A stretch of 64,000 nt of DNA from an uncultured Oscillospiraceae bacterium. GTDB taxonomy: Bacteria > Bacillota > Clostridia > Oscillospirales > Oscillospiraceae. Both the position numbers and the translations under genes were made by a program. A model generated the notes under the pieces. It ran no database searches and had not been told where the DNA came from. It worked only from the letters and a program-made list of their open reading frames with translations. The stretch is from the NCBI GenBank assembly GCA_964609305.1, contig CAZSRK010000001.1:20411-84410 (forward strand), written 5' to 3'. Below, one piece after another: positions 16,458-52,012 of this stretch. Position 1 is the stretch's first letter, and each line of letters starts with the position of its first letter.

Positions 16458-16485
16458 TCCCCTGAAACGGTTCTTTGATAGGCTG

Positions 16486-16521
16486 AAAAATCCCCGGAAA
16501 CAATAGTTTCCGGGGATTTTT
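16486..16521. terminator. bidirectional terminator between the MFS gene and beta-helix paralog A
   Basis: AAAAATCCCCGGAAAC-AATA-GTTTCCGGGGATTTTT, a perfect stem flanked by A-run and T-run. Confidence 0.85.
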
Positions 16522-16556
16522 GCATCTAAGTGAATTGCATCTAATCTAAATCAATT

Positions 16557-27311: not shown

Positions 27312-27472
27312 ATCGCAAAATTCCCCTTTATATCTTTTTATCCCAGTATATATTCTATATCGCACAAATGCAAGACATTCTTTGTGTTTATATCTAAAAA
27401 AGATAGAATTTCCTCTTTACCTATCTCTAAAAGAGAATTATAATGATTTTAGTATCTTTTAAGGAGACGGCT

Positions 27473-28771: not shown

Positions 28772-29710
28772 TTATTGCCTGATTATACGGGTCCCGGTCT
28801 CTCCCCGGACGCCGGCGCCGGCCTTTTCCAAAAGGGTTATCAGCGCCTCTCGCCCTTCGCCGCCACTCACGAACTGCACCGATGCCTCCATCTTCGGCAA
28901 CATTGAGCCCGTGCCAAACTGCCCCTCGAGCGCGTATTTCTCCGCCTGCTCCACTGTTATACAGTCGAGCTCCTGCTGGTCCTCCCGTCCAAAATTGATG
29001 CAGACCTTTTCTACCGCGGTCAGAATGATAAGTCGGTCGGCGCCGAGCTTATCGGCCAGCAGGGCCGAGGCAAAGTCCTTATCTATGACAGCCGCTGCGC
29101 CCTTGAGGTGATACCCCTCGGTGCGGAAGACCGGGATCCCGCCTCCGCCGCAGGCAATCACCACAAGACCCGCCTCGACCATGTCCCGGATGGAGTCTAT
29201 CTCTATTATGCGCCGCGGCATGGGAGAGGACACCACGCGGCGGTAGCCGCGGCCCGAATCCTCAATGACGGTATAGCCGCGCTCCTTCGTCAGGTGCCGC
29301 GCCTCCTCCGCCGTCATAAACGCGCCAATGGGTTTGGTGGGGTTCTGGAACGCGGGATCTTCCCTGTCGACCTCCACCTGCGTCAGGACAGTGGAAACAC
29401 CTTTGGATATCCCGCGCCCGAGCATCTCCTCGCGCAGGGCGTTTTGCAGGTCATAGCCAATGTAGCCCTGGCTCATCGCCACGCAGACGGACAGGGGGCA
29501 TGGTATATATTTCTCCGGATCGGAACGGGTCAGCTCCGTCATGGCCTGCTGGAGCATACCGACCTGCGGCCCGTTACCATGGGTTATTACTATGTCATGC
29601 CCGGCCTCTATAAGATCCGTTATTGCCCTTGCAGTCTGCTTGACCGCCTTCATCTGCTCCGGCAGGTTGGAGCCGAGGGCATTTCCCCCAAGCGCAATTA
29701 CTATCCTCAA
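28772..29710 (-). CDS. arcC: carbamate kinase
   Basis: MRIVIALGGNAL...VITHGNGPQVG...ACGGGGIPV are carbamate kinase signatures. It is the last gene of the ygeW operon, like E. coli yqeA. Confidence 0.9.
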   Translation of the reverse strand: MRIVIALGGNALGSNLPEQMKAVKQTARAITDLIEAGHDIVITHGNGPQVGMLQQAMTELTRSDPEKYIPCPLSVCVAMSQGYIGYDLQNALREEMLGRGISKGVSTVLTQVEVDREDPAFQNPTKPIGAFMTAEEARHLTKERGYTVIEDSGRGYRRVVSSPMPRRIIEIDSIRDMVEAGLVVIACGGGGIPVFRTEGYHLKGAAAVIDKDFASALLADKLGADRLIILTAVEKVCINFGREDQQELDCITVEQAEKYALEGQFGTGSMLPKMEASVQFVSGGEGREALITLLEKAGAGVRGETGTRIIRQ

Positions 29711-29721
29711 CTTTTTCTCCC

Positions 29722-30924
29722 TCAGCCATTGAGCGTCTGTCTCTCAACGCCCCACTCGTCAAGCTTTTCCAGCATTTTGGCCGGGTCTTTGACCTTTGCA
29801 AGGAAGATCATCGCCGCGATTATATACGGCTTGAAGCCGGCCTGCTTATAAAGAGGCACGCGGTAACGGTCAAAGACGGAGCCGACCACCTCGCCCTCGG
29901 CGCAGGACACTCCGGTTATATCTGCCGGCAGGCAATGCAGATACAGCGCCTTGCCCCCGCGCGTGAGCGCCATCATCTCCTCGGTGCACTCCCAGTCCCT
30001 GTGCTCGGAATTCTGCGCCAGAAGCTCCTTCTCCAATGCGTCTATTCCGTCAAAATCGCCGTTTCCGTAAAGCTCCGTGCGCTTTTCCATCGCGGCAAAG
30101 GGCGCCCAGCTCTTGGGATAGACGATGTCAGCATCCTTGAACGCCTCGGCCATGGAATTTGTCTTGGTAAACGAGCCGCCGGACTTTTCCGCGTTGGCCA
30201 GCGCAACCTGTTCTACCTCGGGCATTACCTCATAGCCCTCCGGATGGGCCAGCACAACGTCCATGCCGAAGCGTGTGAACAGGCCGATGACACCCTGAGG
30301 CACGGACAGAGGTTTGCCGTAGCTGGGCGAATATGCCCAGGTCATTGCAATTTTTTTACCCTTGAGGTTTTCCACGCCGCCGAACTCATGGATCACATGC
30401 AGCAGGTCGGCCATGGTCTGGGTCGGGTGGTCGATGTCGCACTGAAGGTTCACCAGCACCGGGCGCTGCTTGAGCACGCCGTCCTCATACCCCTCTCTGA
30501 CCGCATCGGAAACGGATTTCTGATAGGTATGGCCCTTGCCTATGTACATATCGTCGCGGATGCCTATCACATCGGCCATGAAGGAAATCATGTTCGCAGT
30601 CTCCCTCACAGTCTCCCCATGTGCTATCTGGCTCTTGCCCTCGTCAAGATCCTGCACCTGCAGGCCAAGGAGGTTGCAGGCCGATGCAAAGGAAAATCGC
30701 GTGCGGGTGGAGTTGTCGCGGAAGTTGGATATGCCGAGTCCGGAATCAAATATCCTGCAGGATATGTTGCGCTCACGCAGGTTGCGCAGGGCGTCGGCCA
30801 CGGCGAAAACGGCGTCCAGCTCGTCGTCGGTCTTGTCCCAGGTGAGGAAAAAGTCCTCGCCATACATGTCCTTGCAGTCGAGTTTTTTGAGCCTTTCCAC
30901 AAGCTTTTTGAGTTTTGCGTCCAT
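29722..30924 (-). CDS. ygeW: YgeW-type (knotted) carbamoyltransferase
   Basis: The start at MDAKLKKLVERL follows AAGGAGAG. DNSTRTRFSFASA is the carbamoyl-phosphate site, and DIDHPTQTMADLLH and HCLPADITG are also present. The overall pattern matches YgeW rather than OTC or ATC. Confidence 0.8.
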   Translation of the reverse strand: MDAKLKKLVERLKKLDCKDMYGEDFFLTWDKTDDELDAVFAVADALRNLRERNISCRIFDSGLGISNFRDNSTRTRFSFASACNLLGLQVQDLDEGKSQIAHGETVRETANMISFMADVIGIRDDMYIGKGHTYQKSVSDAVREGYEDGVLKQRPVLVNLQCDIDHPTQTMADLLHVIHEFGGVENLKGKKIAMTWAYSPSYGKPLSVPQGVIGLFTRFGMDVVLAHPEGYEVMPEVEQVALANAEKSGGSFTKTNSMAEAFKDADIVYPKSWAPFAAMEKRTELYGNGDFDGIDALEKELLAQNSEHRDWECTEEMMALTRGGKALYLHCLPADITGVSCAEGEVVGSVFDRYRVPLYKQAGFKPYIIAAMIFLAKVKDPAKMLEKLDEWGVERQTLNG

Positions 30925-30946
30925 CTTTGTGACTCTCCTTTGTTTT

Positions 30947-32359
30947 TTATTTGATGTCATTGCCGGTCAGCGCGGCACGAAACTGCGTGGCGTCCTGCGT
31001 CCCTTCCTCCCGCCTGTACAGCCCGGGTACCGCCGCATACACCGCCGCGCAGGTGACCAGGTCCTGCTTCCAGGTTATCTCGTTCGGCGCGTGCGCCCAG
31101 CTCTCCGCGCCGGGACCAAAGCCAACGCAGGGAATACCATAGCGGCCCTGTATGGACACGCCGTTTGTTGAAAAGGTCCACTTGTCGGTCAACGGCCGGC
31201 CGCGGCGCAGATGCATCGCGTCGCGGTAATTATCCTCATCGGCATAGCCGATGCGCTCTTCGCCGAACATGGCGCGGTGCGCCTGTGCGAGCGCCTGCAC
31301 ATGTGCGGAGGTCTGCCTGTTTATCCAGGTCGGGAAATAGCATTCGGTCTCATATACCTCGCCTGTCCAGCTCGGCCGGTCGTACATATACATGGATACC
31401 GTGACGTCCTGTCCGTACTTTTTGACGGCGGGCAGCGCGCGTATCTCGTCCAGACAGGAATCCCAGGTTTCGCCGGCGGTCATACGCCTGTCTATCGACA
31501 CGGAGCAGGAGTCGGCCACCGCACAGCGGCTCGGGCTTGTAAAGAAGATCTCGCTGACCGTGCAGGTACCCCGGCCCAGAAAGCGCGCATCCTGCCAGTG
31601 TTCCGGGTTGTATTCCGGCTCCAGCATCTTTACAAGGCCCTTGATCTCCACGCTGTCATCCGCCGGGTTTTCGTTCAGCGCTCGCACGTCCTGAAGAATA
31701 TCCGCCATTTTATATATCGCGTTGTCGCCGCGCTCCGGCGCGCTGCCGTGGCAGGATACGCCCCTGACGTCGACGCGTATCTCCATGCGTCCGCGGTGGC
31801 CGCGGTATATGCCGCCGTCGGTCGGCTCCGTCGAAATGACAAATTCGATCCTGCTTCTCGCGTCCTCGGGTCCGTCAAAGTACTTGTTGACGATGTACTG
31901 CCAGCACATGCCGTCGCAGTCCTCCTCCTGTACGGAGCCGACGACCATGAGCCTGTATTCCTCGGGTATCAGGTCGAGATCTTTCATTATCTTCGCGCCG
32001 TACACGGCGGAGGCCATGCCCCCCTCCTGGTCGCTGCCGCCGCGGCCGTAGATTATCTCGTTGTCCTCCCAGCCCTCGTAGGGGTCGGCGCTCCAGTTGT
32101 CGATATTGCCGATGCCGACGGTGTCGATGTGGGAGTCGATGGCGATTATCCTGTCCCCATCGCCCATCCAGCCGATTACGTTGCCGAGCCCGTCGACCTC
32201 CACTTTGTCGAAGCCGAGCTTTTCCATCTCCGCCTTTATACAGGCGACGACCTCTCCCTCGTGGCAGCTCTCGCTCGGAAGCCTTATCATCGCGCGCAGG
32301 AACGCGCTCATGTCCTCCCGGTATCCCTTAGCAGCCGCCTTTATCGCTTCAAAATCCAT
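30947..32359 (-). CDS. ygeY: YgeY-like M20-family amidohydrolase
   Basis: [20 protein letters not shown] and EEDCDG are M20 metal and catalytic motifs. It is adjacent to ygeW and ygfK, as in the E. coli yge/ygf region. Confidence 0.8.
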
Positions 32360-32378: not shown

Positions 32379-35351
32379 TCAGTAAACCAGCCAACTGTAA
32401 TTATTTATGACGGCCCGGACCATATCTCCGGCCATATCAGGTATCTCATCAAGCGTATATTCGTTAGTTCCTTCTCCGATACGGACAAGTATCTGATTAT
32501 TTTCAAGAATAAGGAAACCGGGATTTTCACTGCTGTCAAAGTCCTCGCGCGTTGAAAAGAGTGTGAACTTCGTGCGGTACGGCCCGCCAACATAGGGGCA
32601 GAAGACCTCACAGTTGCCGCACTCGTTGCACATGGCGTCAACATGAAGTATCTGCCGCGCGCCGTTTACAGTCACGGCGATGTTTGCCCTGTTCGGACAT
32701 ACCTCACAGCAGGTCTCGCAGACGGTCGGGCACTCAAGGCAGCGGTAGGAATTGCTGACGTTATCAAGATCAGTGGCAAGATACCCGCGCTTGAACCTTG
32801 CAGACGTATCGTCAGGAGCAGCGTTTATCTCTTCATATTTTGACAGGTCGAGTCCGGCGATTGCCTGCACCGCCGCCGTCGCGCCTGCGATCGCCTCGAC
32901 GACTGTCTTGGGGCCGGTCCTCGCGTCGCCGGCGAGCCAGACTCCCTTAACATTAGTGCTTCCATCGGCATTGCAGACGGGCCTTCCCCGCTTGTCAAGC
33001 TCGATACCGAAACGGGAATAGAGCTCGCTGTCGGTACGCTCCCCGACAGCGGCGATGACGACGTCCGCGTCGACGTCCTGCGTCTGGCCGGTCGCGACAG
33101 GGCTGCGGCGGCCGCTGGAGTCCGGCTCGCCCAGACGCATGACCTGACAGGTCAGTTTGCCATCCCTCACCCCGACGGGCGCCAGCAGCGGCCGGAACTC
33201 GACGCCTTCGTGCATCGCCTCGACAAGTTCCTCCTCGTCGGCGGGCATGTTGCGCACATCCCGGCGATAGACGAGCGATACCTTCTCAACACCGCGGCAG
33301 CGCAGCGCGGCGCGTGCGGCGTCCATGGCGGTATTGCCTCCGCCGACTATGACAACGTTTTTACCGGGCTGAAGCGCCTCGCCCCGGGTCTTGAAATCAC
33401 GAAGAAATTCGATGACATTCCTCGCCTCGCCGTACTCCAGCCCGAGCTTTCCGGGATTCCATGCTCCTGTTGCGATAATAATGGTCTCAAAGCCAAGGGC
33501 TGCTATCTCATTTGGAGAATTTATCTCTCTGCCCGTTATGAACTCGACGCCCAGCGCCCGACAGAGCTCGAGGTCCCGATCAACCGTCTCTTCGCTGATG
33601 CGGAAGGAGGGAATTACGTTCCTGACGATGCCTCCGGGCTTTTCCAGGCGCTCGAATACCGTCGCCTTAAAACCCGCGCGGGCCAGGAAAAAAGCGCAGG
33701 ATATGCCGGCGGGGCCGCCGCCTATGATACCCACCTTTCGGCCGTTTGGCGCGGCTGGCCTGATCTCATTCAGAAGCTCTGCCTGCCCGTTCAGGGCGCT
33801 TTCAAGCTTGACGGCGCGGATGTCTACCGGCGCCTCATAGTGGTTTCTCATGCACTTGTTCATGCAGGTATGCGGGCAGATGGTGCCCGTGATGTTCGGC
33901 AGAGGGTTACGCTCGGTTATAACACGCAGCGCCTCGAGGTATCGTCCCTCTCCTGCCAGTCGCAGGTATGCGGGTATATCCTGATTTATCGGGCAGGTAC
34001 GGTGACAGGGTGCGGTAAAGCAGTCGAAGACAGGAAGCTGCTGCTCCAGCCTGCGCGAGGGCAGGGGCTTTACCGGCTTGCGGTAATGCCCGTCCTGCAA
34101 AGCCGCCGCGGCAAGAGCCGAGACCTTTTCCGTGCTTACCTTCTCAAATGGAACGTATTCCACATCCGCCATCATATCCGCAAGCTGGCACAGCCTGTTG
34201 TATCCGCCGGATTTGAGCAGCGTCGTGGCCATGGTTATGGGCCAGATGCCCGCGTTGAACAGATCCTCAATATTAAACGCATCCGCTCCCCCGCAGTAGC
34301 TTATCCGGAGCTTTCCATCAAATTCCGCGGCGAGCCGGCTGCACAGCTCTACCGTGAGCGGATACAGGCTCCTGCCGGACATATACATCTCCTCGGCCGG
34401 GAGCTCACCCTGCGTGACCTTGACGGGAAACGTGTTCGTGAGCTTGACCCCGAAGCTCAGGCCATGGCTTTCGGCCAGCGCCATGAGCCGGCGGAACATC
34501 GGCACCGCATCGGCATACTGCAGATCGTCGTTGAAGTGGAAATCGTCAAAGGCCATGTAATCGAAGCCCAGCGAATCAAGCGTTGAACGGGCAAATTTAT
34601 ATCCGAGCAGCGTGGGGTTGCATTTCACGAAAGTGTTGAGCTTTTTTCTCTCAACAAGATATGTCGCAATGCTTTCTATCTCTTTTGGAGGACATCCGTG
34701 CAGTGTAGAGAGGGTTATGCCGGAGCAGATACGCGGGGAAATACTGTCGATATAGTCCCAGCTTACCTTGTAGAAGCTGGAGAGATTGCCTTTGGCCCAG
34801 GACATACACTCCTGCCAGACGGCGGAGCCGGACGCGTCCCTGAGCCCCTCTATGAAAGCGTCTATCTTCGGCGACTGTATTCCGGCCAGGTCGTATCCTA
34901 CGGACATGTTGAACATGAACCCGTCCGGACGGCCGAGGCCGAATTCCAGTGAGATGAGCTTGAGCACAAACCAGGCCTTGACATACTCGTCGAACGCCTC
35001 CTGTACGGTCAGCTCGGTCGACCACTCGCAGTTATAGGCCTCGTCGCCGGAGGCGATGCAGGGCTTGTTTACACATGCGGCCAGCTCCCGTCCATCCACG
35101 GTCTGGACAGTCTTGAGCTCGAAAAAACGTCCGCCGGCGACATAGGCTGCGACTATGTTCTGCGCAAGCTGCGTATTCGGGCCTGCTGCGGGGCCGAAGG
35201 GCGTCTCCAGTTTCTCTCCGAACAGCTCCAGTGTCCGGCCGGGGGCCCTGTGCAGCTTTGAAACCCCGAAGACCGTGCCCTGGCTGCGGTATTCGGCGAG
35301 GATATGGGTCATCAGTTTTTCAAATGGTATCGGTTTCATTATATCGCTCAT
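32379..35351 (-). CDS. ygfK: YgfK-like Fe-S flavoprotein oxidoreductase (DPD-like barrel, GltD-like FAD/NAD(P) domains, ferredoxin domain)
   Basis: The 990-aa product has two dinucleotide folds ([21 protein letters not shown] and [15 protein letters not shown]). The C-terminus carries cysteine clusters [19 protein letters not shown] and [12 protein letters not shown]. Confidence 0.85.
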
Positions 35352-35370: not shown

Positions 35371-36702
35371 TTAGCCGTTGAGCTCTTTCCAGAGCTTGTC
35401 CGCACTCGCCCGTATATGGGCGTTTATCGCTTCCTCATCGATATTCACGAGCTCTCGGTCGCGCATGAGCACCTTTCCGTTTACGACGGTGGTCTGGCAC
35501 TGTCGGCCGGTCATGCCGAATATCATGTGCCCGTCTATATTCGCGTCGGAGAACTGGGTAAAGGGCTTATAGTCCATGACGATGACGTCTGCGGCAGCGC
35601 CCTCGGATAGTATGCCCAGCGGTTTTCCGAAGTGGCGCGAGGCGATGGCCGGGTTGTTTCTGAACATTGCCCCCGTTACCTCCGTCCATGCGACGCCGGG
35701 CAGACAGGCGTTGTGCCGCTGGATGATGAGCGCGACTTTCAGGCTCTCGAGCATGTCGTGGGTATAGGCGTCCGTGCCCAGACCGACAGTTATGCCCTTT
35801 TTGCACATCTGGAGCACCGGCGAGCAGCCGACGGCATTGCCCATATTGGACTCCGGATTATTCACGACCGCCGTGTTCGTCTCTTTTATCAATTCCATCT
35901 CCGCAGTATTTATATGTATGCAGTGGCCAAGCAGCGTACGCTCGCCGAGTATACCGTGGTCATGCAGGCGCTGGACAGGACGGCGGCCATAATTTTGCAG
36001 GCTGTCATATACGTCGTTCATCCCCTCCGAGACATGGATGTGGTAACCCATGAGGCCGTTGTTCTCCTGTACGCAGCGCTCAAAGGTCTTGTCGGAGAGT
36101 GTGAAGAGCGCATGCATGCCGAACATCGGCTTTATCATGTCGCTGTTCTGCTCGATTGCCCATCTGCCAAACTCGACGTTCTCACGTATCGCCTGAAGGC
36201 ACTTCTCCTCCCCGTCACGGTCGGACACCTCGTAGCACAGGCAGGCGCGCTCGCCCAGCTCCTTTGCAACGTCGGCTATCGCAAAAAGTGATCCGGGGAT
36301 CTCCGCATAGCTGGCGTGATGGTCAAATATGGTCGTCACTCCCTGCTTTATACAGTCGATGATCGTCGCATAGGCGCTCGCGCGCGTGCCCTCGATGGTC
36401 AGATGGCGGTCAATGTTCCACCACATCCCGTCGAGCACTTCGAAAAAGTTCGTCGGCGCATACCCGTTTATGGACAGGCCGCGGGCCAGCGCGCTGTAAA
36501 TATGCGTGTGCGCGTTTATAAAGCCGGGCATTATCACACCTCCGCGCGCGTCGACGAACTCAGCGCCGAGATACTTCTGGCGTATCTGTGAAAAATCGCC
36601 GACCTCCACGATGGTATCCCCGTTGCAGGCGACCGCACCGTCCTCAAAATACGGTTTTTTCTCATCCCTTGTAATGACTTTTCCGTTTCCTATTATGAGC
36701 AT
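35371..36702 (-). CDS. ssnA: SsnA-like amidohydrolase
   Basis: The start at MLIIGNGKV follows GGAGG. It has the metal-binding motif PGFINAHTHIYS and lies immediately upstream of ygfK, as in E. coli. Confidence 0.8.
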   Translation of the reverse strand: MLIIGNGKVITRDEKKPYFEDGAVACNGDTIVEVGDFSQIRQKYLGAEFVDARGGVIMPGFINAHTHIYSALARGLSINGYAPTNFFEVLDGMWWNIDRHLTIEGTRASAYATIIDCIKQGVTTIFDHHASYAEIPGSLFAIADVAKELGERACLCYEVSDRDGEEKCLQAIRENVEFGRWAIEQNSDMIKPMFGMHALFTLSDKTFERCVQENNGLMGYHIHVSEGMNDVYDSLQNYGRRPVQRLHDHGILGERTLLGHCIHINTAEMELIKETNTAVVNNPESNMGNAVGCSPVLQMCKKGITVGLGTDAYTHDMLESLKVALIIQRHNACLPGVAWTEVTGAMFRNNPAIASRHFGKPLGILSEGAAADVIVMDYKPFTQFSDANIDGHMIFGMTGRQCQTTVVNGKVLMRDRELVNIDEEAINAHIRASADKLWKELNG

Positions 36703-36898
36703 TGCGACTTTACCTCCTCGATGCTTTTCCATCAAAAAGGGCGTCCACCTTTCGTGAACGCCCTTTCACGCGGCAGCAAAACGGCTTCAGCCTGCTCAAA
36801 GAGCGGGAGTATCAGCCCGTGCGCGAAGCACTTCGTTACAGCCGAAGAATATATTACCTGTATATCTGATTTTACCATCACTGTGTATTCCATTGCAA
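36703..36898 (-). promoter_or_regulatory. promoter plus about 165-nt structured leader ending in an intrinsic terminator, upstream of ssnA (candidate riboswitch or attenuator, class unknown)
   Basis: On the minus strand: TTGCAA (36893-36898), an 18-nt spacer, then TGgTAAAAT (-10 at 36869-36874). Several local hairpins follow. The terminator AAGGGCGTTCAC-GAAA-GGTGGACGCCCTT plus TTTTG (about 36731-36767) lies only about 25 nt before the ssnA RBS. A competing hairpin CGTGAA-AGGGCG-TTCACG overlaps the terminator 5' arm. Confidence 0.5.
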
Positions 36899-36906
36899 TA
36901 GCCAAA

Positions 36907-38169
36907 TCAAAAAATTCTTTTTCCGGACACAAATTTTGCGCAGCAGTCCTCTCCGCGGGAGAGGAAAATGAACCGCTCGAGACGCTCGCGCATCGAATAG
37001 GGCCGATTTGTACCGAACCTCGCCTCGTCGGCGACGACGGCGTCGAACTCAAACCCCTCGCAGAAAGCGCCGGTGTCTCCGAAGAACGCGCCTGCTCCGC
37101 GTGTCGCGAGATAGAACACCTCGTTGCAGCCGAGCGCTGCCTCCGGCTCCGAGCACAGCCTTGCGCGCAGTTTTGACGCTCGCATCGCCTCGCGCATCGC
37201 CTCGTTTATATCAAGGCTTTCTCCGCCGGATATGTCCGTACCCAGGCCGATGTTGACCCCCGCCTCGAGATATCGGCGCACGGGGGCGACGCCGCTTTTG
37301 ATATTGGAGTTGGAGCTGGGGCAATGGGCGATGAATGCGCCGCGCTGGAGCATAAGCTCAGTCTCCCGCCGGTCGTTATAAAGACAGTGCGCCATAACCG
37401 TCCTGTCCGTCAGCAGCCCGAAGCCGTCATATACGTCGGCATAATCCAGTGCGGAGGGGAAGAGCCTTTTGACCCACTCTATTTCGTCGTGCGTCTCGTC
37501 CAGATGTGACTGGACATACAGCCCCCGCCCGCGCACGAGCTCTCCCAGCCGGCGCAGCAGCTCATCCGTGCAGCTGGGCGCAAAGCGCGGGGTTATTATG
37601 GGTTTTGTGTTTTCAAACCCGGCGCAGCCGTCCAGCCAGCGCAAAGTCTCGCGCATCGAGCTGTTCGCGTCTTTCTCCCTCAGGAAATCGGGACAGTTCC
37701 TGTCCATGTTTACCTTTCCAACCAGGGTATGCAGCCCGCTCTCCTCCAGAAGACGCATGAGAAGCAAAGTCGCGGGCACATGCACCGTTGCGAATATGGC
37801 CGCCCGGGTCGTGAATCCCCGCCGGAGCTCTCCGACGAACGCGGCGTAGACCTTTTCGGCATACTGCATGTCCTCAAACTTTGCCTCTTCGGGAAAGGTC
37901 AGGCCGTCGAGCCACTGTATGAGCTCATGGTCCATGCCCAGTCCGAGGTCGGCATACTGGCTGGCATGGGTATGCAGATCGGAAAAGCCCGGCATCACGA
38001 ACTTTCCGGAAAAATCCAAAATGGGCAGTCCGGAATATCTCTCCGGCAGGGATCGAAACAATCCGGCGCAGCGCCCATCTTCACAGACAAGGAAAGAATC
38101 CTCCGAAAATTCGGCGCCTTTAGGTGTCGGCGCATGCACTATGTCGCCGCGCAGAACAAAATCCTTCAT
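36907..38169 (-). CDS. guaD: amidohydrolase-superfamily guanine-deaminase-like enzyme
   Basis: The start at MKDFVLRGDIVH follows ACGGAGG (the track ORF extends to 38328). Motifs are PGFSDLHTHASQ, HLDETHDEIEWV and GLGTDISGG. Confidence 0.65.
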   Translation of the reverse strand: MKDFVLRGDIVHAPTPKGAEFSEDSFLVCEDGRCAGLFRSLPERYSGLPILDFSGKFVMPGFSDLHTHASQYADLGLGMDHELIQWLDGLTFPEEAKFEDMQYAEKVYAAFVGELRRGFTTRAAIFATVHVPATLLLMRLLEESGLHTLVGKVNMDRNCPDFLREKDANSSMRETLRWLDGCAGFENTKPIITPRFAPSCTDELLRRLGELVRGRGLYVQSHLDETHDEIEWVKRLFPSALDYADVYDGFGLLTDRTVMAHCLYNDRRETELMLQRGAFIAHCPSSNSNIKSGVAPVRRYLEAGVNIGLGTDISGGESLDINEAMREAMRASKLRARLCSEPEAALGCNEVFYLATRGAGAFFGDTGAFCEGFEFDAVVADEARFGTNRPYSMRERLERFIFLSRGEDCCAKFVSGKRIF

Positions 38170-38372
38170 CAATACCGCCTCCGTTTTTGCCGCCATCCTG
38201 CTCCGGAACGGCGGATATATGCCCCTGCGCCCGTGCCCCATCCGGCATGAGAATGGCGCATATAATAAAATTGCGCAATATATTTTATCATATACGCCGG
38301 AGCAAAACAACTTGTGTTCGTCTGCCATTTATCGTATACTTGACTCAACCAGATAATTCGGGAGGATGTATC

Positions 38373-39833
38373 ATGATCGACCTTACCATAAACAAAGACG
38401 CGCTTGGGCGCAACATCTCCATCGCCCGCGAAAACGGCATCACGATCCCCACCTTTGCGCAGATGAAAGATCCGGGACTCATACCGGACGATATAAAGCA
38501 AAAACTCAAAACCACCGGCATGTGGGACGTTGACCCGGTCAACCTTTTCCGTGTGACCTGGAAAAACGAACCTGTCAGCAGCGGCGGTCTTTTCGGCGCG
38601 CCGAACTACATCGAGCTGCCCAGTGAGCTGACCGGCGTACCCTGCCGTATCCTTGCGCTGGTAGGAAAGTGGTTTCCGACCGGATGCCATAAGGTCGGTG
38701 CCTCCTTCGCCTGCCTGGTACCCCGTCTCGTGACCGGCCAGTTCGACGCGCGCAACCAGCGGGCCGTCTGGCCCAGTACAGGCAACTATTGCCGCGGCGG
38801 CGCGTTCAACTCCCGCCTGCTCGGCGCGCAGGGCGTGGCTATCCTCCCTGCGGAGATGAGCCAGGAGCGCTTTGACTGGCTCAGGAGCATCGGCTCACAG
38901 GTGATCGCGACCCCGGGCTGCGAATCCAATGTCAAGGAGATTTTCGACAAGACCAACGAGCTGCGTCAGGATCCCTCCTGCATGATATTCAACCAGTTTG
39001 AGGAGATGGGCAACCACCTGTGGCATTATGAGGTCACAGGCTCTGCCCTGGCAGAAACGTTTGAGAGCATAAAGCGTCCCGGCGACCGCTTCGCCGGCGC
39101 GTGCTTCACGACGGGCTCTGCCGGCACCATCGGCTCCGGCGACAGGCTAAAGGAGCTTTATCCGGGACTGAAGCTCGCCGCAGGAGAGGCGCTGCAGTGC
39201 CCAACCCTGCTTGAAAACGGCTTCGGCGGCCACCGTATCGAGGGCATCGGCGACAAGCACGTTCCCTGGATACACAACGTCAGGAATACAGACCTTGTTA
39301 TCGATATCGACGACAACGACAGCTTTGACCTGACCCGCCTGTTCAACGAGCCGCAGGGCCGCGAATACCTCGTGCGGGAGCTAGGCGTCGAGCCGGAGTT
39401 TGTCCAGAAGCTCGGCCTTCTCGGCATCTCGGGCATCGCCAACGTCCTGTGCTGCATCAAAATGGCAAAGTATTATGAATTTGACGAGCATGATATCGTG
39501 GCGACCGTGCTGACCGACAGCATAGACATGTACGGCAGCCGCATCGAGGAGCTGCGCGAGCGCGACGGCGAGTACACGCCGACAAAGGCCGCCGTCGACT
39601 ATGCCCTGCATCTGGGCGGTATCAAGACCGACAACATGCTGGAGCTGACCTATCCCGCGCGCAAGCGTGTGCACAACCTCAAGTATTACACCTGGGTCGA
39701 GCAGCAGGGGCACACTGCCGATGAGCTCAACGCGCTCTGGTACGACGTTGAGGGCACCTGGGGCGCCGTGCATAAACAGGCGCAGGAGATCGACGAGCTG
39801 ATATGCCAGTTCAACGAGGCGGTCAGGGCATGA
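38373..39833 (+). CDS. fold-type-II (Trp-synthase-beta/cysteine-synthase-like) PLP-dependent enzyme with long N- and C-terminal extensions
   Basis: The start at MIDLTINKD follows GGGAGG. The candidate PLP lysine is in PTGCHKVGASF, and STGNYCRGGA and TTGSAGTIGSG (glycine loop) are present. At 486 aa it is larger than CysK or DAP ammonia-lyase. Confidence 0.6.
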   Translation: MIDLTINKDALGRNISIARENGITIPTFAQMKDPGLIPDDIKQKLKTTGMWDVDPVNLFRVTWKNEPVSSGGLFGAPNYIELPSELTGVPCRILALVGKWFPTGCHKVGASFACLVPRLVTGQFDARNQRAVWPSTGNYCRGGAFNSRLLGAQGVAILPAEMSQERFDWLRSIGSQVIATPGCESNVKEIFDKTNELRQDPSCMIFNQFEEMGNHLWHYEVTGSALAETFESIKRPGDRFAGACFTTGSAGTIGSGDRLKELYPGLKLAAGEALQCPTLLENGFGGHRIEGIGDKHVPWIHNVRNTDLVIDIDDNDSFDLTRLFNEPQGREYLVRELGVEPEFVQKLGLLGISGIANVLCCIKMAKYYEFDEHDIVATVLTDSIDMYGSRIEELRERDGEYTPTKAAVDYALHLGGIKTDNMLELTYPARKRVHNLKYYTWVEQQGHTADELNALWYDVEGTWGAVHKQAQEIDELICQFNEAVRA

Positions 39834-41056
39834 AAAACGTCAAGTGCCTCAAATGCATAAAATGCGGCCGGGAGTATTCGCCCGCACCGGACGCCACGAT
39901 CTGCCAGTGCGGCGGCATCCTGGACGTGGTTTACGACTATGACTACATACGCTCCGTTGTCAGCCGCAGGTATTATGCGCAGCACAGCGAGCGCTCCATG
40001 TGGCGTTACCGCGCCTTCCTCCCGGTCGAGGATGAAACCCCGGCGCCGCCGCTGCGTGTCGGATGGTCCCCGCTGTATGAGAAACCGGGGCTGGCTTCCG
40101 ACCTGGGCATCGCGCGCCTCTGGGTCAAGGACGACGGGCTGAACCCGACCTCCAGCCTCAAGGACCGGGCAAGCTCCATGGCGGTCGCCAAGGCCATGGA
40201 AGCGGGATATGGCACCATCGCCTGCTCCAGCACCGGCAACGCCGCCTCCTCTTTGGCGGGGAACGCGGCGGCGGCCGGCCTTAAGACCTATATATTCGTG
40301 CCGTCCCGCGCGCCCGCCGGCAAGGTCGCGCAGCTTCGCATTTTCGGCGCGACGGTGATCTCCGTCGAGGGCAGCTATGAGGATACCTTTCGCCTGTCTG
40401 CCGAGGCGATAGAAAAATACGGCTGGTACAACCGCAACGCCGCCATAAACCCGTATCTCATGGAGGGGAAAAAGACCGTTGCGCTCGAAATCGCCGAGCA
40501 GCTCGGCTGGGAGGTCCCGGACTATGTTGCGCTTTCGGTCGGCGATGGCTGCACCATTGCGGGGGTCTGGAAGGGCTTTAAGGACCTGTACGGTGCCGAG
40601 CTTATCGACAGGCTGCCCCGGCTCATAAGCGTTCAGGCACAGGGCTGCTGCCCGATAAACCGTGCGCTCGAAACCGGAAGGCCCGTCGAGCCAATGGGCG
40701 AGAACACCATTGCCGACAGCATCGCCGTCGGCGTGCCGCGAAACCCCGACAAGGCGATGGCCGCCGTACGCGAATCGAACGGCCTGACTGTCGAGGTGTC
40801 GGACGAGGAGATATTCTCCGCAATGCGGCTGCTTGGCCGCAGCTGCGGCGTTTTTGGCGAGCCTGCCGGCGCTGCCGGTACTGCGGGCCTGGTCAGGGCC
40901 TGTGAAAAGGGCCTGCTCCCTGCCAACGCTACCGTGGTGTCGATCGTGACGGGAAACGGGCTAAAAGATACGGCCAGCGGCATCAAGGCCGCCGGGGAGC
41001 CCGTCCGTGTCGAGCCCTGCCTTGAGCTGGTTGAAAAGGCGCTTGGCCTTCAATAA
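39830..41056 (+). CDS. threonine-synthase-like PLP-dependent enzyme with an N-terminal zinc ribbon
   Basis: MKNVKCLKCIKCGREYSPAPDATICQCGG provides four cysteines. NPTSSLKDRAS carries the PLP lysine, and SSTGNAASS and TGNGLKD are present. Its start overlaps the stop of the preceding PLP gene (ATGA). Confidence 0.65.
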   Translation: MKNVKCLKCIKCGREYSPAPDATICQCGGILDVVYDYDYIRSVVSRRYYAQHSERSMWRYRAFLPVEDETPAPPLRVGWSPLYEKPGLASDLGIARLWVKDDGLNPTSSLKDRASSMAVAKAMEAGYGTIACSSTGNAASSLAGNAAAAGLKTYIFVPSRAPAGKVAQLRIFGATVISVEGSYEDTFRLSAEAIEKYGWYNRNAAINPYLMEGKKTVALEIAEQLGWEVPDYVALSVGDGCTIAGVWKGFKDLYGAELIDRLPRLISVQAQGCCPINRALETGRPVEPMGENTIADSIAVGVPRNPDKAMAAVRESNGLTVEVSDEEIFSAMRLLGRSCGVFGEPAGAAGTAGLVRACEKGLLPANATVVSIVTGNGLKDTASGIKAAGEPVRVEPCLELVEKALGLQ

Positions 41057-41062
41057 AACACA

Positions 41063-41101
41063 AAGGCCATGAAAGGCAGGCAGCCTTTCATGGCCTTTTT
41101 T
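41063..41101 (+). terminator. intrinsic terminator after the PLP gene pair
   Basis: AAGGCCATGAAAGG-CAGGCAG-CCTTTCATGGCCTT followed by TTTT. Confidence 0.85.
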
Positions 41102-41136
41102 AAATATACCGGATTTCATCGTGAAGAAGGAGCGGA

Positions 41137-41921: not shown

Positions 41922-43001
41922 ATGCCTGATAATAAGATAACACGTTTTTTTCTGGGAGCCAACTCAGAACAGGGCTTTTACTCGCTTTATGACGGTTTTG
42001 CCCGTCCGGAGGACGGGGTGTTCCTATACGTGCTCAAGGGCGGGCCCGGCTGCGGCAAGTCGAGCTTTATGAAGCGCATCGGTGCCCGCGCAGACTGTGA
42101 GGGTCTGGACGTTGAATACATCCACTGCTCCGGCGACCCCGAATCACTCGACGCGGTATATATCCCCGCGCTCGGCGTCGCCTACGCCGACGGCACGTCG
42201 CCGCACGTTCTCGACCCTCCGTATCCCGCAGCGGGCGGCGCATACCTCGACCTTGGCAGCTTTTACGACATCGATAATCTCAAGCCAAGGCTTGCGGAGA
42301 TCATGGCCCTTAACCGAAGGTACAAGGGTAAATATAAGGAAAGTTATGCTCTCCTCTCCTCCGCAGGCAGCGTCGCTGTCCGCCCCCTGCCGGAGCTGAT
42401 GACCAGGGACGTGGACAGCTCCGTCCGGCGGCGCGCCCGGTCGCTCATCGGCAGGGAACTGGACAGAGTATCCGCCTCCGGAACCGGACGTATCGACAAA
42501 CGCTTCCTGTCCGCAATAAGCTGCCAGGGCAGCGTTTTCTTCGATGCCACGATTTACGAGATCGCGCCGCGCGTGTGCGTACTTGACAACGACCTCGGCT
42601 TTGCGCAGGCATATCTGGACGAATGCGTAAAAGCCGCGCATGAGCGCGGATATGACATGATCGTATGCCCCGACTGCCTGACGCCGGAAAAGACCCAGGC
42701 CGTGCTCATACCCGAGGCGGGGCTGGCGCTGCTGGAGTCCGGTCGGCGCTCGCGCTGGACGGGTGAGGTATACCGCCACGTGCGCCTGGACGCCATGGCT
42801 GACACACAGGCGCTCTCACAGCTTCGCCCGGCCATGCGCACGGCCGAAAAGCTGCGCGCGGCGATAATAGCCGAGGCGGAGAAAAAGCTTGCTGCGGCGA
42901 AAGCCCTGCATGATGAGGTTGAGGCCGTGTATAACCCGCATGTTGACTTTGGCGGAGTATATGAGCTGGTCGAAAAACACGCCGAAATGCTTGGCATCTG
43001 A
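41922..43001 (+). CDS. P-loop ATPase of unknown function
   Basis: Walker A LKGGPGCGKSSFMKRI. No further family assignment is possible from the sequence alone. Confidence 0.6.
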   Translation: MPDNKITRFFLGANSEQGFYSLYDGFARPEDGVFLYVLKGGPGCGKSSFMKRIGARADCEGLDVEYIHCSGDPESLDAVYIPALGVAYADGTSPHVLDPPYPAAGGAYLDLGSFYDIDNLKPRLAEIMALNRRYKGKYKESYALLSSAGSVAVRPLPELMTRDVDSSVRRRARSLIGRELDRVSASGTGRIDKRFLSAISCQGSVFFDATIYEIAPRVCVLDNDLGFAQAYLDECVKAAHERGYDMIVCPDCLTPEKTQAVLIPEAGLALLESGRRSRWTGEVYRHVRLDAMADTQALSQLRPAMRTAEKLRAAIIAEAEKKLAAAKALHDEVEAVYNPHVDFGGVYELVEKHAEMLGI

Positions 43002-45728: not shown

Positions 45729-47522
45729 ATGTTACGCCACTTCTGCAGATCCCCGCTTTGCGACGCGGCTCCGGCTCTCATCTCGACCGCAATGGGCCGC
45801 TCGCCGGCGGAGCTGGTCATCCGCTCGGCAAGGCTTGTGAACGTCTGCACTGGCGAAATATTGCCGGATACGGACGTGGCCGTCACCCAAGGCCGCATCG
45901 CGCTGGTCGGCGACGCGGCGCATTGCATAGGAGAAGGCACACGGGTAATAGATGCAAACGGCGCATATCTCGCCCCCGGTTTTCTGGACGGGCATATACA
46001 TGTCGAGTCGTCCATGCTCTCTGTCGGGGAGTATGCCCGGGCCGTCGTGCCGCACGGCACCGTCGGCATATATATGGACCCTCACGAGATATGCAATGTC
46101 CTCGGCATGGAGGGCGTGCGCTGTATGATAGAGGATTCGCACCGTGCTCCGCTCAAGACGATGGTCACGGTACCCTCCTGCGTGCCCGGAGTGCCGGGGT
46201 TTGAGGATACGGGCGCCGAGATAACGGCGGAAAACGTCGCGGAAATGCTGAGCTGGCCGGAGGTAGTAGGTCTCGGAGAGATGATGAACTATCCCGGCAT
46301 CCTCGAGGGCAGCGAGCGTCCGCTGTCCGTCGTACGCGAGACGCAAAAGGCAGGGATGCCCGTCACGGGGCACTACCCCTCTTCTGATATCAGGGGCCTG
46401 AACGCATACATAGCCGCCGGCATAAATTGCTGCCACGAATCCACGACTGAGACGGACACACTTTCCAAAATGCGCCTTGGAATGTATGCGATGCTGCGCG
46501 AGGGCAGCGCGTGGCACGACTTGGCCGAGGTCTCCAAGGCCGTCACTCGGCACGAGGTCGACACGCGCCTTGCCCTTCTCGTGACGGACGACGCACATCC
46601 CAATACGCTTATTACAAACGGGCACCTTGACTATCTGCTGCGCCGCGCCATGCAGGAGGGCATTCCCGCCATTCAGGCGATACAGATGGTCACGATAAAT
46701 ACCGCGACCTGCTTCGGCATGCAGGCCGAGCTGGGCAGCATCGCGCCCGGAAAATGCGCGGACATGGTGCTCATCGGTTCACTCGAGGATATGGACGTGA
46801 GGATGGTGTTTATTGACGGCGAGCTTGTCGCCGAAAATGGCCGGATGACCCGGGAACCGGGAAAATATGAATACCCCGCCTTTGCGCGCAGCACAATGAA
46901 CGTCGGCGGCCCCGTCTCCCCCGAAGTTTTCCGGCTCCCCGCCCCGTCGGAGGGACTGACCCGCGTCAGGTGTATCGAGGTCATCTCGGGAAAGACCGTC
47001 AACCGCGAACGCATCGTCACGCTTCCGGTAACAGAGGGATACGTCGGCAGCGACACGTCGCAGGACGTGCTCAAGGCGGTCGTGTTCGAGCGGCACAGGG
47101 CCACAGGCAAAAAAGGCTTCGGCTTTGTCAAGGGGTTTGGAATACGCCGCGGCGCGATGGCCTCGACCGTCTCGCACGACGCGCACAATCTCCTCGTTGT
47201 CGGCACCTGCGACGAGGACATGGCCCTGGCGGCAAACACGCTCATCGAAAGCGGCGGCGGGATGTGCGCCGTACGGGACGGAAGGGTCCTGGGACATGTG
47301 AAGCTGCCCATAGCCGGGCTCATGAACGACCGTCCGGCGCAGGATATGGCCGCTGACGTGGCCGTGCTCGAAGACGCCTGGCGTGAGATAGGCTGTACAT
47401 TGCCGTCCCCGTTCATGACGATGGCGCTTATCCCGCTGGCCTGCATCCCGGAGCTGCGGCTGACTGACCGCGGGCTCGTTGACTGCCGCGATTACCGCTT
47501 TGCGGAGCTTTTTATCGGGTGA
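45729..47522 (+). CDS. ade: adenine deaminase
   Basis: The 597-aa product has PGFLDGHIHVESS and a two-domain architecture typical of Ade. A strong AAAGGAGG RBS is present. Confidence 0.85.
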   Translation: MLRHFCRSPLCDAAPALISTAMGRSPAELVIRSARLVNVCTGEILPDTDVAVTQGRIALVGDAAHCIGEGTRVIDANGAYLAPGFLDGHIHVESSMLSVGEYARAVVPHGTVGIYMDPHEICNVLGMEGVRCMIEDSHRAPLKTMVTVPSCVPGVPGFEDTGAEITAENVAEMLSWPEVVGLGEMMNYPGILEGSERPLSVVRETQKAGMPVTGHYPSSDIRGLNAYIAAGINCCHESTTETDTLSKMRLGMYAMLREGSAWHDLAEVSKAVTRHEVDTRLALLVTDDAHPNTLITNGHLDYLLRRAMQEGIPAIQAIQMVTINTATCFGMQAELGSIAPGKCADMVLIGSLEDMDVRMVFIDGELVAENGRMTREPGKYEYPAFARSTMNVGGPVSPEVFRLPAPSEGLTRVRCIEVISGKTVNRERIVTLPVTEGYVGSDTSQDVLKAVVFERHRATGKKGFGFVKGFGIRRGAMASTVSHDAHNLLVVGTCDEDMALAANTLIESGGGMCAVRDGRVLGHVKLPIAGLMNDRPAQDMAADVAVLEDAWREIGCTLPSPFMTMALIPLACIPELRLTDRGLVDCRDYRFAELFIG

Positions 47523-47527
47523 TACTT

Positions 47528-48904
47528 ATGGATAAGGTTCTTAAAATCAAAAACGGAGAAATCGTAACCTCCGATTCCGTCATGCGTTCGGACATCTACG
47601 TGGAAAACGGGCGCATCGCTCAGATTGGCGGCGAGCTGCCCTGCGATATCGAATACGACGCGCGCGGCTGTCTTATCTTTCCCGGCTTTATCGACAGCCA
47701 CACCCACCTGGGCATGGACGCCGGCAGCACATGGACCATTGACGACTGGGCCAGCGGCACACGTGCGGCCCTCGCCGGCGGCACCACGACCGTTTTGGAC
47801 TTTGCGACGCAGGACAGGGGCGACACCCTTGCCCATGCGCTGGAGGTCTGGCATTCCCGCGCCGACGGGCATGCCTTTTGCGACTACGGCTTCCACATGG
47901 CCGTGACCGACTGGAACGGGCATACGCGCCGCGAAATATCCGAGATGCCGGCAGCCGGCGTGACAAGCTTCAAGGCGTACATGGCCTATGACAATCTGCG
48001 CCTTGGCGATGACGAGCTGCTGGAGCTTCTCCGGGAAACACGGGACATCGGCTATGTCGGCGTGCACTGCGAGATCGGAGTCGAGGTGAACCGCCGCGTG
48101 CGCGAGCTGCTCGGCAGCGGCTGCACCGGCCCGGAATACCATCCCCTGTCACGTCCAAACGAGGTCGAGGCGGCGGCTGTCCGACGGTTCATGGAGCTGG
48201 CGGAGCTGGCCGGATCGCCTGCATGGGTCGTGCATCTGAGCACCCGCGAGGGGCTCGCGGAGATACTCAGCGCCCGTAAACGCGGCCTGGACGTACTTAC
48301 GGAAACCTGCCCTCAGTATCTCGCGCTCACGGATAAGGTTTACATAACTGGAAGATTTGAGGCCGCTAAATTTGTCTGTTCCCCTCCGATACGTTCGCTG
48401 GCAGATCAGCAGGCATTGTGGGACGCGATCTCCGGCAATGAAGTTGACATAATATCGACAGATCATTGCAGCTTCAATTTTCGCGGTCAAAAGGAACTTG
48501 GCCGCGGGGACTTCTCAAAGATACCGAACGGTCTGCCGGCCATAGAGCACCGTCCGGCCCTGATATGGGACAGCGGAGTTGTCGGAGGGCGCATAACGGC
48601 CTGCCGCATGGCGCAGCTTTTGTCGGAAACTCCGGCAAAAGCTTTCGGGATGTGGCCGCGCAAGGGCAACATCAGCCCCGGCGCGGACGCCGATCTGGTC
48701 GTCTGGGACCCGGAAGCGGAGTGGACGATAACGGCGGCAGACCAGCTCATGCGCGCAGACTACTCCCCCTGGGAGGGCAGGCGGATACGCGGACAGGCCC
48801 GCGCCGTGTTCCTGCACGGACAGCTCGCGGCGGAAAACGGCGCCGTAAACGGAAAGGCTGCCGGACGCTACATCTTCCGCTCAGTACGTGTAGGGGCTGA
48901 TTAA
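47528..48904 (+). CDS. hyuA: dihydropyrimidinase/D-hydantoinase-family cyclic amidohydrolase (HyuA/YgeZ-like)
   Basis: PGFIDSHTHL, SFKAYMAY (carboxylated-lysine context), VHCE and STDHCSF. It starts 5 nt after the ade stop. Confidence 0.85.
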   Translation: MDKVLKIKNGEIVTSDSVMRSDIYVENGRIAQIGGELPCDIEYDARGCLIFPGFIDSHTHLGMDAGSTWTIDDWASGTRAALAGGTTTVLDFATQDRGDTLAHALEVWHSRADGHAFCDYGFHMAVTDWNGHTRREISEMPAAGVTSFKAYMAYDNLRLGDDELLELLRETRDIGYVGVHCEIGVEVNRRVRELLGSGCTGPEYHPLSRPNEVEAAAVRRFMELAELAGSPAWVVHLSTREGLAEILSARKRGLDVLTETCPQYLALTDKVYITGRFEAAKFVCSPPIRSLADQQALWDAISGNEVDIISTDHCSFNFRGQKELGRGDFSKIPNGLPAIEHRPALIWDSGVVGGRITACRMAQLLSETPAKAFGMWPRKGNISPGADADLVVWDPEAEWTITAADQLMRADYSPWEGRRIRGQARAVFLHGQLAAENGAVNGKAAGRYIFRSVRVGAD

Positions 48905-51792: not shown

Positions 51793-51814
51793 ACATCTAA
51801 TAAAATTGGATCGC

Positions 51815-51965
51815 AGTCAGATAGAGGCGCGGGACTGATGAGTATCGCCGGAAGAGACAGGCATCTGTCCGGCGGGAAAGGCCGCTCCGCCGAAGCGTTC
51901 CGGCGCTGCCTGGTGCCGGGATGGCTGGGCCGCAGGGAAATACTCTGCGGACTGTCACATGAGTT
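51815..51965 (+). promoter_or_regulatory. lysine riboswitch (L-box) aptamer
   Basis: GATAGAGGCGCGGGACTGATGAGTATCGCC...GGAAAGGCCGCTCCGCCGAAGC...CTGGGCCGCAGGG...GCGGACTGTCACA matches the B. subtilis lysC L-box block by block (AGAGGUGCG, GAGUA, CGCCGAAG, CUGG, GGCUGUCA). Confidence 0.88.
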
Positions 51966-52012
51966 TCGTGTGAAGCGCTATCACGGGTCGAACCGGCAAA
52001 GTCCGTATTCCC

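Follow-up and report, generated by a model that had tools for sequence, protein, structure and literature searches.

Genes A and B are two overlapping plus-strand genes in a 64,000-nucleotide stretch of DNA (hereafter the window) from an uncultured Oscillospiraceae bacterium, contig CAZSRK010000001.1, and they encode two dissimilar enzymes that depend on pyridoxal 5′-phosphate (PLP). They lie beside genes for the anaerobic, reductive breakdown of uric acid (the "2,8-dioxopurine" pathway), whose last enzyme, the diaminopropionate ammonia-lyase YgeX, gave no tblastn match in the 64 kb with the Escherichia coli sequence as query. We propose that A-B constitute a non-orthologous two-enzyme replacement of YgeX and would take over its job at the end of this pathway, a reading to which the comparison of sequences and gene neighborhoods leads us to assign a probability of about 0.62. 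An earlier note, made from the letters of this DNA, had placed an atypical PLP pair in the position of ygeX; its observation as a whole is confirmed, and comparative genomics supports the interpretation that it gave. What is new, and likewise supported by the comparison, is a two-enzyme variant of the published pathway composed of an unnamed family (A) and a family misnamed threonine synthase (B), for which we infer the reaction scheme set out below.

A and B stand where related clusters carry ygeX

Neighborhoods were read by tblastn with reference proteins, combined with a codon-usage-scored gene caller, in 81 loci anchored on A (80 species loci plus the window), with 10 kb visible on either side of the anchor in each locus (numbered with the prefix L). 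The family most often found beside A is B (43 loci), followed by ygeY (26), a YheO-PAS/HTH_22 regulator (25), ygeW (23), carbamate kinase (22), a hyuA-like amidohydrolase (13), a nucleoside-type ABC transporter (12-13), ssnA (10), a guaD-like gene (10), ygfK (8), and xdh (6). By tblastn, both A and B are present in 47 loci, and in 33 of these they lie on the same strand within 300 nucleotides (nt) of each other; the commonest layout is arcC < ygeW < ygeY, divergent from regulator > A > B. When B homologs were used as the anchor, A was again found beside B inside purine clusters, and B without A was not seen in two such look-ups, an arrangement that the A-anchored sample by design cannot show. 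Matches that are only "B-like" (30% identical) occur 3 kb from the regulator in L153, L170, and L172.

The association reappears in a Cloacimonadota locus (L088), where A is 58% identical and B, with its zinc ribbon present, 39% identical to the window proteins; the two genes are not adjacent there, and the same string of genes also holds a ygfK-like gene, an M20 hydrolase, three paralogs of the OTCase family, carbamate kinase, and two xdh sets. Linkage of A-B to purine genes is thus kept in several dozen species and beyond the phylum of the window; the earlier note had named a lack of such linkage in relatives as evidence against its proposal. In a distance tree of A, every clade is purine-linked except one, in which A stands alone beside pgi.

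A second sample comprised 80 metagenome loci anchored on YgeX, the query being E. coli YgeX aligned with the three YgeX homologs seen near A. The standard unit in these loci runs YheO-type regulator > YgeX > ygeY > ygeW > carbamate kinase (arcC) and is usually divergent from ssnA-ygfK-xdh. Its regulator and three enzymes (ygeY, ygeW, and carbamate kinase) belong to the same families as those of the window and are 65-81% identical to them, and the position of YgeX behind the regulator is the one that A-B hold in the other type of cluster. The gene after the regulator is YgeX in the sister clusters, in place of A-B, and the two alternatives are rarely found together. Among A-anchored loci with ygeW/ygeY, 21 hold A and B, three hold A only, two hold A and YgeX, and none (0) holds all three; among YgeX-anchored loci with ygeW/ygeY, 36 hold YgeX only, one holds A and YgeX, one holds B and YgeX, and again none (0) holds all three. 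The single locus with B and YgeX is a 4-kb contig that begins within B. Mixed loci, with YgeX beside A or B, number four over the two samples.

The YgeW proteins of the two cluster types interleave in a neighbor-joining tree (a distance tree with no support values): for instance, L049, of the A-B type, falls inside a YgeX clade; L151, of the YgeX type, is sister to an A-B clade; and L080, which has A and YgeX, is sister to L093, which has YgeX. Near-exclusive occurrence, the same position, and an interleaved YgeW tree are together the signature of non-orthologous gene displacement.

Several points weigh against this reading. With loci anchored on A or on YgeX, the exclusivity counts do not amount to an unbiased contingency test, and the YgeW tree, as a distance tree, carries no support values. 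Loci were seen to ±10 kb and not as whole genomes, and ygeX may lie elsewhere in A-B genomes. A occurs with YgeX and without B in L046, L080, and L111, and with ygeW/ygeY but with neither B nor YgeX in L044 and L086. Purine genes are out of view around A in the clade beside pgi. In three loci, A lies before serC-serA(-DUF1015) and may have a wider or different role. Finally, the reading needs two enzymes where one suffices in YgeX-type clusters.

A narrower candidate, in which the replacement of YgeX would fall to B alone and A would have no part in it, was prompted by the three loci with A and YgeX and without B, a pattern not significant by itself (p about 0.1, first sample). It is countered by the YgeX-anchored sample, in which YgeX-type clusters lack A as well as B.

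Organization of the A-B unit

38373-39833 (+): gene A, 486-aa PLP enzyme of the CysK/CBS fold (open reading frame list, conserved N-terminus, Pfam/NCBIfam/fold comparison)
39830-41056 (+): gene B, 408-aa threonine-synthase-like PLP enzyme (Pfam, NCBIfam, Foldseek)
39830-39833 (+): ATGA start/stop overlap of A and B (ATG of B, 39830-39832; TGA of A, 39831-39833)
38360-38366 (+): Shine-Dalgarno-like GGGAGGA, 6 nt 5′ of the ATG of A
41062-41103 (no strand assigned): 16-bp hairpin (41062-41098) and T run, resembling a bidirectional terminator, between B and a convergent HAD-hydrolase gene
38691-38693 (+): codon of the catalytic K107 of A
39854-39910 (+): four-Cys zinc-ribbon motif at the N-terminus of B (C9, C12, C25, C27)
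40160-40162 (+): codon of the PLP-binding K111 of B
40457-40459 (+): codon of L210 of B, at the position of an Arg that we take to belong to the phosphate site of threonine synthase (ThrC)
40544-40546 (+): codon of D239 of B, at the position of a presumed phosphate-site Asn of ThrC

The N-terminal M-I-D of A is kept among its homologs, and the start codon is therefore sound. As the earlier note had described, A and B form a two-gene unit with an ATGA overlap, divergent from the guaD-ssnA operon and closed by a terminator; the unit lies 201 nt from the minus-strand operon, and the terminator appears to be two-way and common to the unit and the convergent HAD-hydrolase gene. In other loci examined by tblastn, the spacer between A and B is usually 10-150 nt, and in some the two genes lie apart or on different strands. 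The ATGA overlap is thus a peculiarity of the window and is not conserved, and translational coupling, which the earlier note had offered as a trait of the pair, is no general trait of A-B. A leader RNA or riboswitch before A was considered and rejected: Rfam matches 5′ of A are absent up to E = 1, and the z-score of the predicted fold is −0.46. No sigma-70-like promoter was predicted on the plus strand.

Protein B has the fold of threonine synthase but an altered presumed phosphate site

The similarity of B to threonine synthase is extensive, as the earlier note had recognized. B scores 273 bits against Pfam PALP, its closest solved relatives are threonine synthases (E of 1e-72 to Aquifex ThrC), and its AlphaFold (AF2) model, with a predicted local distance difference test (pLDDT) score of 86, superimposes on ThrC structures in Foldseek with template-modeling (TM) scores of 0.86-0.91 at 38-41% identity. 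It passes two NCBIfam models named threonine synthase, NF006050 marginally (311 vs 303) and TIGR00260 (215.3 vs 167.1), and its orthologs carry that label in public records. A core member of NF006050, found beside a distant A-like gene, scores 575 and keeps what we take to be the phosphate-site Arg. The four-Cys zinc ribbon was likewise correctly read: C9, C12, C25, and C27 are invariant in 44 orthologs and also in 30 database homologs, whereas C6 is not conserved in the 44, and strands 4-9 and 30-35 of the ribbon are modeled with pLDDT ~90. K111 (in S-L-K-D-R) and S134-T-G-N are invariant in the 44 orthologs, so that the PLP lysine and the carboxylate loop are present.

Compared with the ThrC enzymes of Thermus thermophilus (1UIM/1V7C), Aquifex aeolicus (2ZSJ), and Bacillus subtilis (6CGQ), B shares the fold, S-x-K-D-R, and S-T-G-N but adds the N-terminal zinc ribbon, lies in a purine-catabolic context and not with hom/thrB, and differs in a set of residues elsewhere conserved. 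All of five solved ThrCs have S-T-G-N-T, N-S-x-N-P-x-R-[IL]-E-G-Q-K-T, and V-G-N-A-G-N, where B and its 44 orthologs have S-T-G-N-A, N-A-A-I-N-P-Y-L, and G-D-G-C. Numbered by counting along the 1UIM sequence, in which the PLP lysine is K61, the T. thermophilus residues T88, N154, S155, R160, and N188 correspond to A138, N203, A204, L210, and D239 of B, that is, to changes of the T88A, S155A, R160L, and N188D type. We take these five residues, reportedly assigned this role by Omi et al. 2003, to be the O-phosphohomoserine phosphate-binding site of ThrC, and under this presumption four of the five are changed in B. Among the 44 orthologs, the R160 position is Leu in 42, Thr in one, and Met in one, and never Arg, and A138 and D239 are invariant.

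If these site roles hold, B would seem not to be a functional threonine synthase, and the four changes argue against a phosphorylated substrate. They would fit a cationic leaving group, for example the β-ammonium of 2,3-diaminopropionate (DAP). ThrC enzymes catalyze slow β-eliminations of serine and threonine, and a ThrC-derived ammonia-lyase would therefore be chemically natural. No hom/thrB-like family was found among the recurrent neighbors of A-B, the families that were annotated.

Protein A belongs to an unnamed family with the CysK/CBS fold

Protein A is the more divergent of the two. Its Pfam evidence is a weak PALP match over residues 117-325, and every NCBIfam match falls far below its cut-off, the best being cysK (86.6 vs 350.95), with cysM at 32.8 vs 394. 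The closest solved relatives by sequence are cysteine synthases and cystathionine β-synthases (CBS), which align over residues ~130-330 only. The AF2 model (pLDDT 77) consists of a CysK-like core with extra helices at 8-59 and 389-485, and its best Foldseek matches are CysK, CBS, and Fn1055 (TM ~0.75 per target, 20-25% identity). The cysteine-synthase-like type assigned in the earlier note is thus borne out in the fold, and its estimate of about 80 extra residues at each end was roughly right, the extensions being ~75 aa at the N-terminus (~1-75) and ~100 aa at the C-terminus (~389-486). Being ~160 aa longer than CysK, A does not have the single-domain, ~300-320-aa architecture of CysK/CysM.

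Relative to the CysK-CBS clade (O-acetylserine sulfhydrylase, CBS, and Fn1055), A combines a common core fold and catalytic residues with low identity, helical terminal extensions, and one altered loop. Invariant in 32 sequences are K107, S135-T-G-N, Q208, T246-T-G-S-A-G-T, and S353 (in G-I-S353-G), and A by this comparison keeps the catalytic set of the clade: the lysine, the Asn loop, the Gln, the phosphate loop, and the N1-binding Ser. The clade motif H-[KR]-I-[QE]-G-I-G is also kept. The loop of the leaving-group pocket, G-I-G-A-G-F in CysK, is an invariant G-I-G-D294-K295-H296 in A, adding an acidic residue, and seven cysteines are invariant as well (C105, C114, C140, C183, C244, C360, and C361).

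Databases hold at least 8000 relatives of A at E < 1e-10, distributed over at least 600 GTDB species genomes, and the best 80 loci of these 600 or more species genomes are 63-81% identical. The family collapses into few 50%-identity clusters and is therefore compact and strongly constrained. Ten distant cluster representatives carry no source name other than "PLP-dependent enzyme" or "cysteine synthase", and A by these measures is a large, very conserved, and unnamed PLP family. An identity as OrtB (2-amino-4-oxopentanoate thiolase) was dropped, as no NCBIfam match supported it; no OrtB sequence was compared. A homolog 46% identical to A (P0127/P0285) is present in Aduncisulcus paluster, an anaerobic metamonad (protist), and is probably a bacterial gene transferred into a eukaryote.

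Neither protein resembles YgeX/DpaL (E. coli b2871), itself a PLP enzyme of fold type II, as the earlier note had held. A matches E. coli YgeX in BLASTP over 46 residues only and does not match NF006058; B is 25% identical to YgeX and scores 62 bits on NF006058 against a cut-off of 276; and A and B show no similarity to each other that BLASTP can detect. We conclude from these comparisons that neither is an ortholog or a diverged copy of YgeX. A-B share with YgeX the cofactor superfamily, the place after the YheO-type regulator and beside ygeY-ygeW-carbamate kinase, and presumably the pathway step, but are two proteins against one and are not orthologous to it. The YgeX alignment has an invariant T-D-G-N where A and B both have S-T-G-N, with Thr in place of Asp; we take this Asp, D120 in E. 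coli YgeX, to be the second catalytic base, a role reportedly given to it by Bisht et al. 2012.

A proposed two-enzyme route from diaminopropionate to pyruvate

In the known upstream route, SsnA, YgfK, and HyuA open the rings, and YgeW with carbamate kinase, and YgeY, remove the two ureido groups to leave DAP; in the scheme that we propose, A-B would convert this DAP to pyruvate and ammonia. B, with Leu for the presumed phosphate-binding Arg and Asp for the Asn, would be the β-eliminating ammonia-lyase, and A, with CysK/CBS β-replacement machinery and an Asp-Lys-His pocket for Ala-Gly-Phe, would carry out a preceding step that B needs. Judged by its conserved residues, A retains everything for the formation of PLP-aminoacrylate from a β-substituted alanine. 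Its step would most likely be replacement of the β-amino group of DAP by water or sulfide to give serine or cysteine, which B would then deaminate (in the simplest form: A, DAP + H2O or HS− → Ser or Cys + NH3; B, deamination to pyruvate). Fn1055, which converts cysteine to serine and H2S, is a precedent for β-replacement by water. A less likely step for this clade would be conversion of a D-isomer, delivered by the D-hydantoinase route, to the form accepted by B. More tentatively, A-B may represent an unrecognized two-step route from DAP through a free intermediate, with A as the founder of a new functional class in the CysK/CBS clade.

A bolder version would make A phosphorolytic (DAP + inorganic phosphate → O-phosphoserine), with the product running backwards through SerC/SerA to 3-phosphoglycerate. 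If true, it would yield one additional ATP per urate (+1) and would account for the loci in which A precedes serC and a short serA-type dehydrogenase (-DUF1015), namely L023, L026, and L039; by a rough estimate, the variant is uphill at the A step. A YgeX homolog begins 12 nt past DUF1015 in L026 (1-6264). These loci suggest a link of A (or of DAP) to serine/phosphoserine metabolism.

Distant A-like proteins, 45% identical in L092 (7494-10401) and 31% identical in L091 (7644-10395), likewise have another PLP gene of fold type II as their partner, outside purine contexts. One of these pairs overlaps by 8 nt and has a TRAP transporter and a sigma-54 regulator as neighbors; the other stands divergently to a PRK08197 "threonine synthase" of high score in which the phosphate-site Arg, on the site assignment presumed above, is retained. 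If the two-step reading is true, such pairing in unrelated contexts would point to a general catabolic module. A further A-like gene, 47% identical, lies in L090 (9001-13275) just behind an F420 biosynthesis operon; after this gene come the two CoA-transferase subunits, A and B, and an oxidoreductase of the luciferase-like (F420-type) kind, a context unlike the urate cluster.

Alternative roles for the pair

Among other explanations, the one that fares best, although we consider it unlikely, is that A-B form an assimilatory side branch that would lead part of the purine-derived DAP or an albizziin-like intermediate to serine or cysteine, with the bulk flux passing through a YgeX encoded elsewhere; the alternative substrate would be an intermediate with a free α-amino group, such as albizziin. 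The intact CysK-type β-replacement residues of A would suit this role, as would the position of A beside serC-serA-DUF1015 in L023, L026, and L039 and beside dapF/dapL in L017, and its presence together with YgeX in L046, L080, and L111. A side branch, however, should add to YgeX and not exclude it, and the near exclusivity therefore counts against it: 21 of the 26 A-anchored clusters with ygeW/ygeY hold A and B with no YgeX within 10 kb, A or B is almost never found in YgeX-type clusters, and A-B lie exactly at the ygeX position behind an orthologous regulator.

We consider it far less probable that A-B serve a molybdenum hydroxylase, as a sulfur/selenium donor or through another precursor for maturation of a selenium-dependent xanthine dehydrogenase. 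CysK-type enzymes handle sulfide and selenide, and the genes on either side of A-B are those of xdh subunits and of a MocA-like cytidylyltransferase, and not ygeW/ygeY, in L004, L022, L036, L063, L175, and L088. Yet YgeX-type clusters share the xdh, ygfK, and ssnA set and have no A-B, and the genes most closely and most often associated with A-B are ygeY, ygeW, and carbamate kinase, which act in the last steps before DAP. No yqeB, yqeC, or selD neighbor was identified among the recurrent neighbor families, which were those checked. Supply of a cofactor or precursor, the alternative that the earlier note had offered, is disfavored, since YgeX-type clusters need the same cofactors and do without A-B.

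That A and B are simply the biosynthetic cysteine synthase and threonine synthase, merely lying beside purine genes, is the least credible explanation: the passing scores of B on two threonine synthase models and its label in the records, the cysteine synthases among the closest solved relatives of A, and the proximity of some A-B loci to amino-acid biosynthesis genes stand against the alteration of B at four of five presumed phosphate positions throughout 44 orthologs, the score of A far below the cysK cut-off (87 vs 351 bits) with its greater length and 20-25% identity to CysK, recurrent neighbors that are purine-catabolic and include neither hom/thrB nor cysE among the recurrent families, and the return of the linkage, in a different gene order, in Cloacimonadota. 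The earlier note had set ordinary thrC and cysK/cysM against its own proposal; given the four changes at the presumed site in B and the distance of A from the CysK/CysM models, that proposal stands.

Relation to the published uric-acid pathway

36907-38171 (−): amidohydrolase resembling guanine deaminase, at the head of the divergent operon (TIGR02967, 345 bits, just below the cut-off of 375; start placed at M54 of the long open reading frame)
36804-36851 (−): ssnA RNA motif (Rfam RF03031, 51.6 bits against a gathering score of 37.3), in front of ssnA and behind the guaD-like gene
35371-36732 (−): ssnA, amidohydrolase that opens the ring in the reductive urate pathway (NF005540, 647 bits)
32379-35351 (−): ygfK, flavin/Fe-S reductase (TIGR03315, 1327 bits)
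30947-32359 (−): ygeY, M20 hydrolase (NF009555, 609 bits)
29722-30960 (−): ygeW, knotted carbamoyltransferase (TIGR03316, 776 bits)
28772-29653 (−): carbamate kinase, equivalent of yqeA/arcC (NF009007, 359 bits)
45729-47522 (+): adenine deaminase
47528-48904 (+): hyuA-type D-hydantoinase/dihydropyrimidinase (TIGR02033, 536 bits vs 393)

The published pathway leads from urate to 2,8-dioxopurine by XdhD/XdhAC, proceeds through YgfK, SsnA, and HyuA, and ends with YgeW together with YqeA, YgeY, and finally YgeX, which converts DAP to pyruvate (bioRxiv 10.1101/2025.04.24.650524; PMC12507026). The window holds ssnA, ygfK, hyuA, ygeW, ygeY, and carbamate kinase all within its 64 kb, the set that it shares with the reductive uric-acid cluster of the Dodd and Wei/Zhang laboratories (2025). 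It differs from that cluster in having A-B in place of ygeX and in the lack of an xdhD/xdhAC-type gene, for which several xanthine-dehydrogenase queries gave no tblastn match in the 64 kb; in related loci, unlike in the window, xdh adjoins A-B.

Neither A nor B is mentioned in the 2025 pathway papers or in those that the Dodd and Rey laboratories published in 2022, and full-text searches found no description of A-B in the literature. Published schemes for scoring the pathway treat ygeX differently. The Wei/Zhang neighborhood analysis scored any PF00291 protein as "YgeX", so that A and B would have been silently counted as YgeX; Kasahara et al. required ygeX/dpaL among five markers; and the seven markers of the Dodd laboratory include YgeX, at ≥ 50% identity. 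Elucidated only in 2025, the anaerobic urate pathway of gut bacteria is now used to score gut species that lower host uric acid. Many of the Oscillospiraceae-type clusters in our sample have A-B instead of YgeX, and such organisms can therefore be missed or be scored for the wrong reason. In a 2022 screen by the Dodd laboratory (bioRxiv 10.1101/2022.07.24.501321), Oscillibacter sp. KLE 1728/1745 and Anaerotruncus colihominis have the value 0, which we take to mean that urate was consumed. The uncultured Oscillibacter loci in our sample are of the A-B type, a coincidence that is suggestive only. Orthologs of B are spread through the databases under the label "threonine synthase". The reaction of A, once assigned, would complete the pathway at its final step in A-B taxa and could reveal new β-replacement chemistry.

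Other features of the window and the sampled loci

The ssnA RNA motif at 36804-36851 (−) is a candidate cis-regulatory RNA inside the urate operon. The YgeY of the window is 470 aa long, against 399 positions in the family profile, and has an insertion of ~50 aa; the YgeY proteins of related loci occur in two forms, one long, as in the window, and one short and E. coli-like.

Two of the sampled purine clusters have unusual gene contents. In the Cloacimonadota locus, the three OTCase-family paralogs lie in a row before carbamate kinase and A (L088, 3317-6866), which hints that both ureido groups may be removed phosphorolytically in that lineage. In a Butyricicoccus porcorum-type contig (L001), a gene at 15745-17385 encodes a 546-aa "half YgfK" that covers only the first ~427 of 1012 positions of the YgfK model; the cluster comprises ssnA, a permease, hyuA, A, B, and an xdhD-like gene of 930 aa, with ygeW, ygeY, and carbamate kinase not within 10 kb.

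Elsewhere in the window, a LexA-like repressor gene (−) and a DinB/Pol IV gene (+) lie divergently at 26607-28534, right beside the end of the urate operon that bears the carbamate kinase gene. A 359-aa protein encoded at 41922-43001 (+) matches "hypothetical protein" NCBIfam models only (PRK06851 group, below cut-off) and no Pfam family. A full-length lysine riboswitch (100 bits) is found at 51814-51988 (+), 5′ of an open reading frame at 52092-52934.

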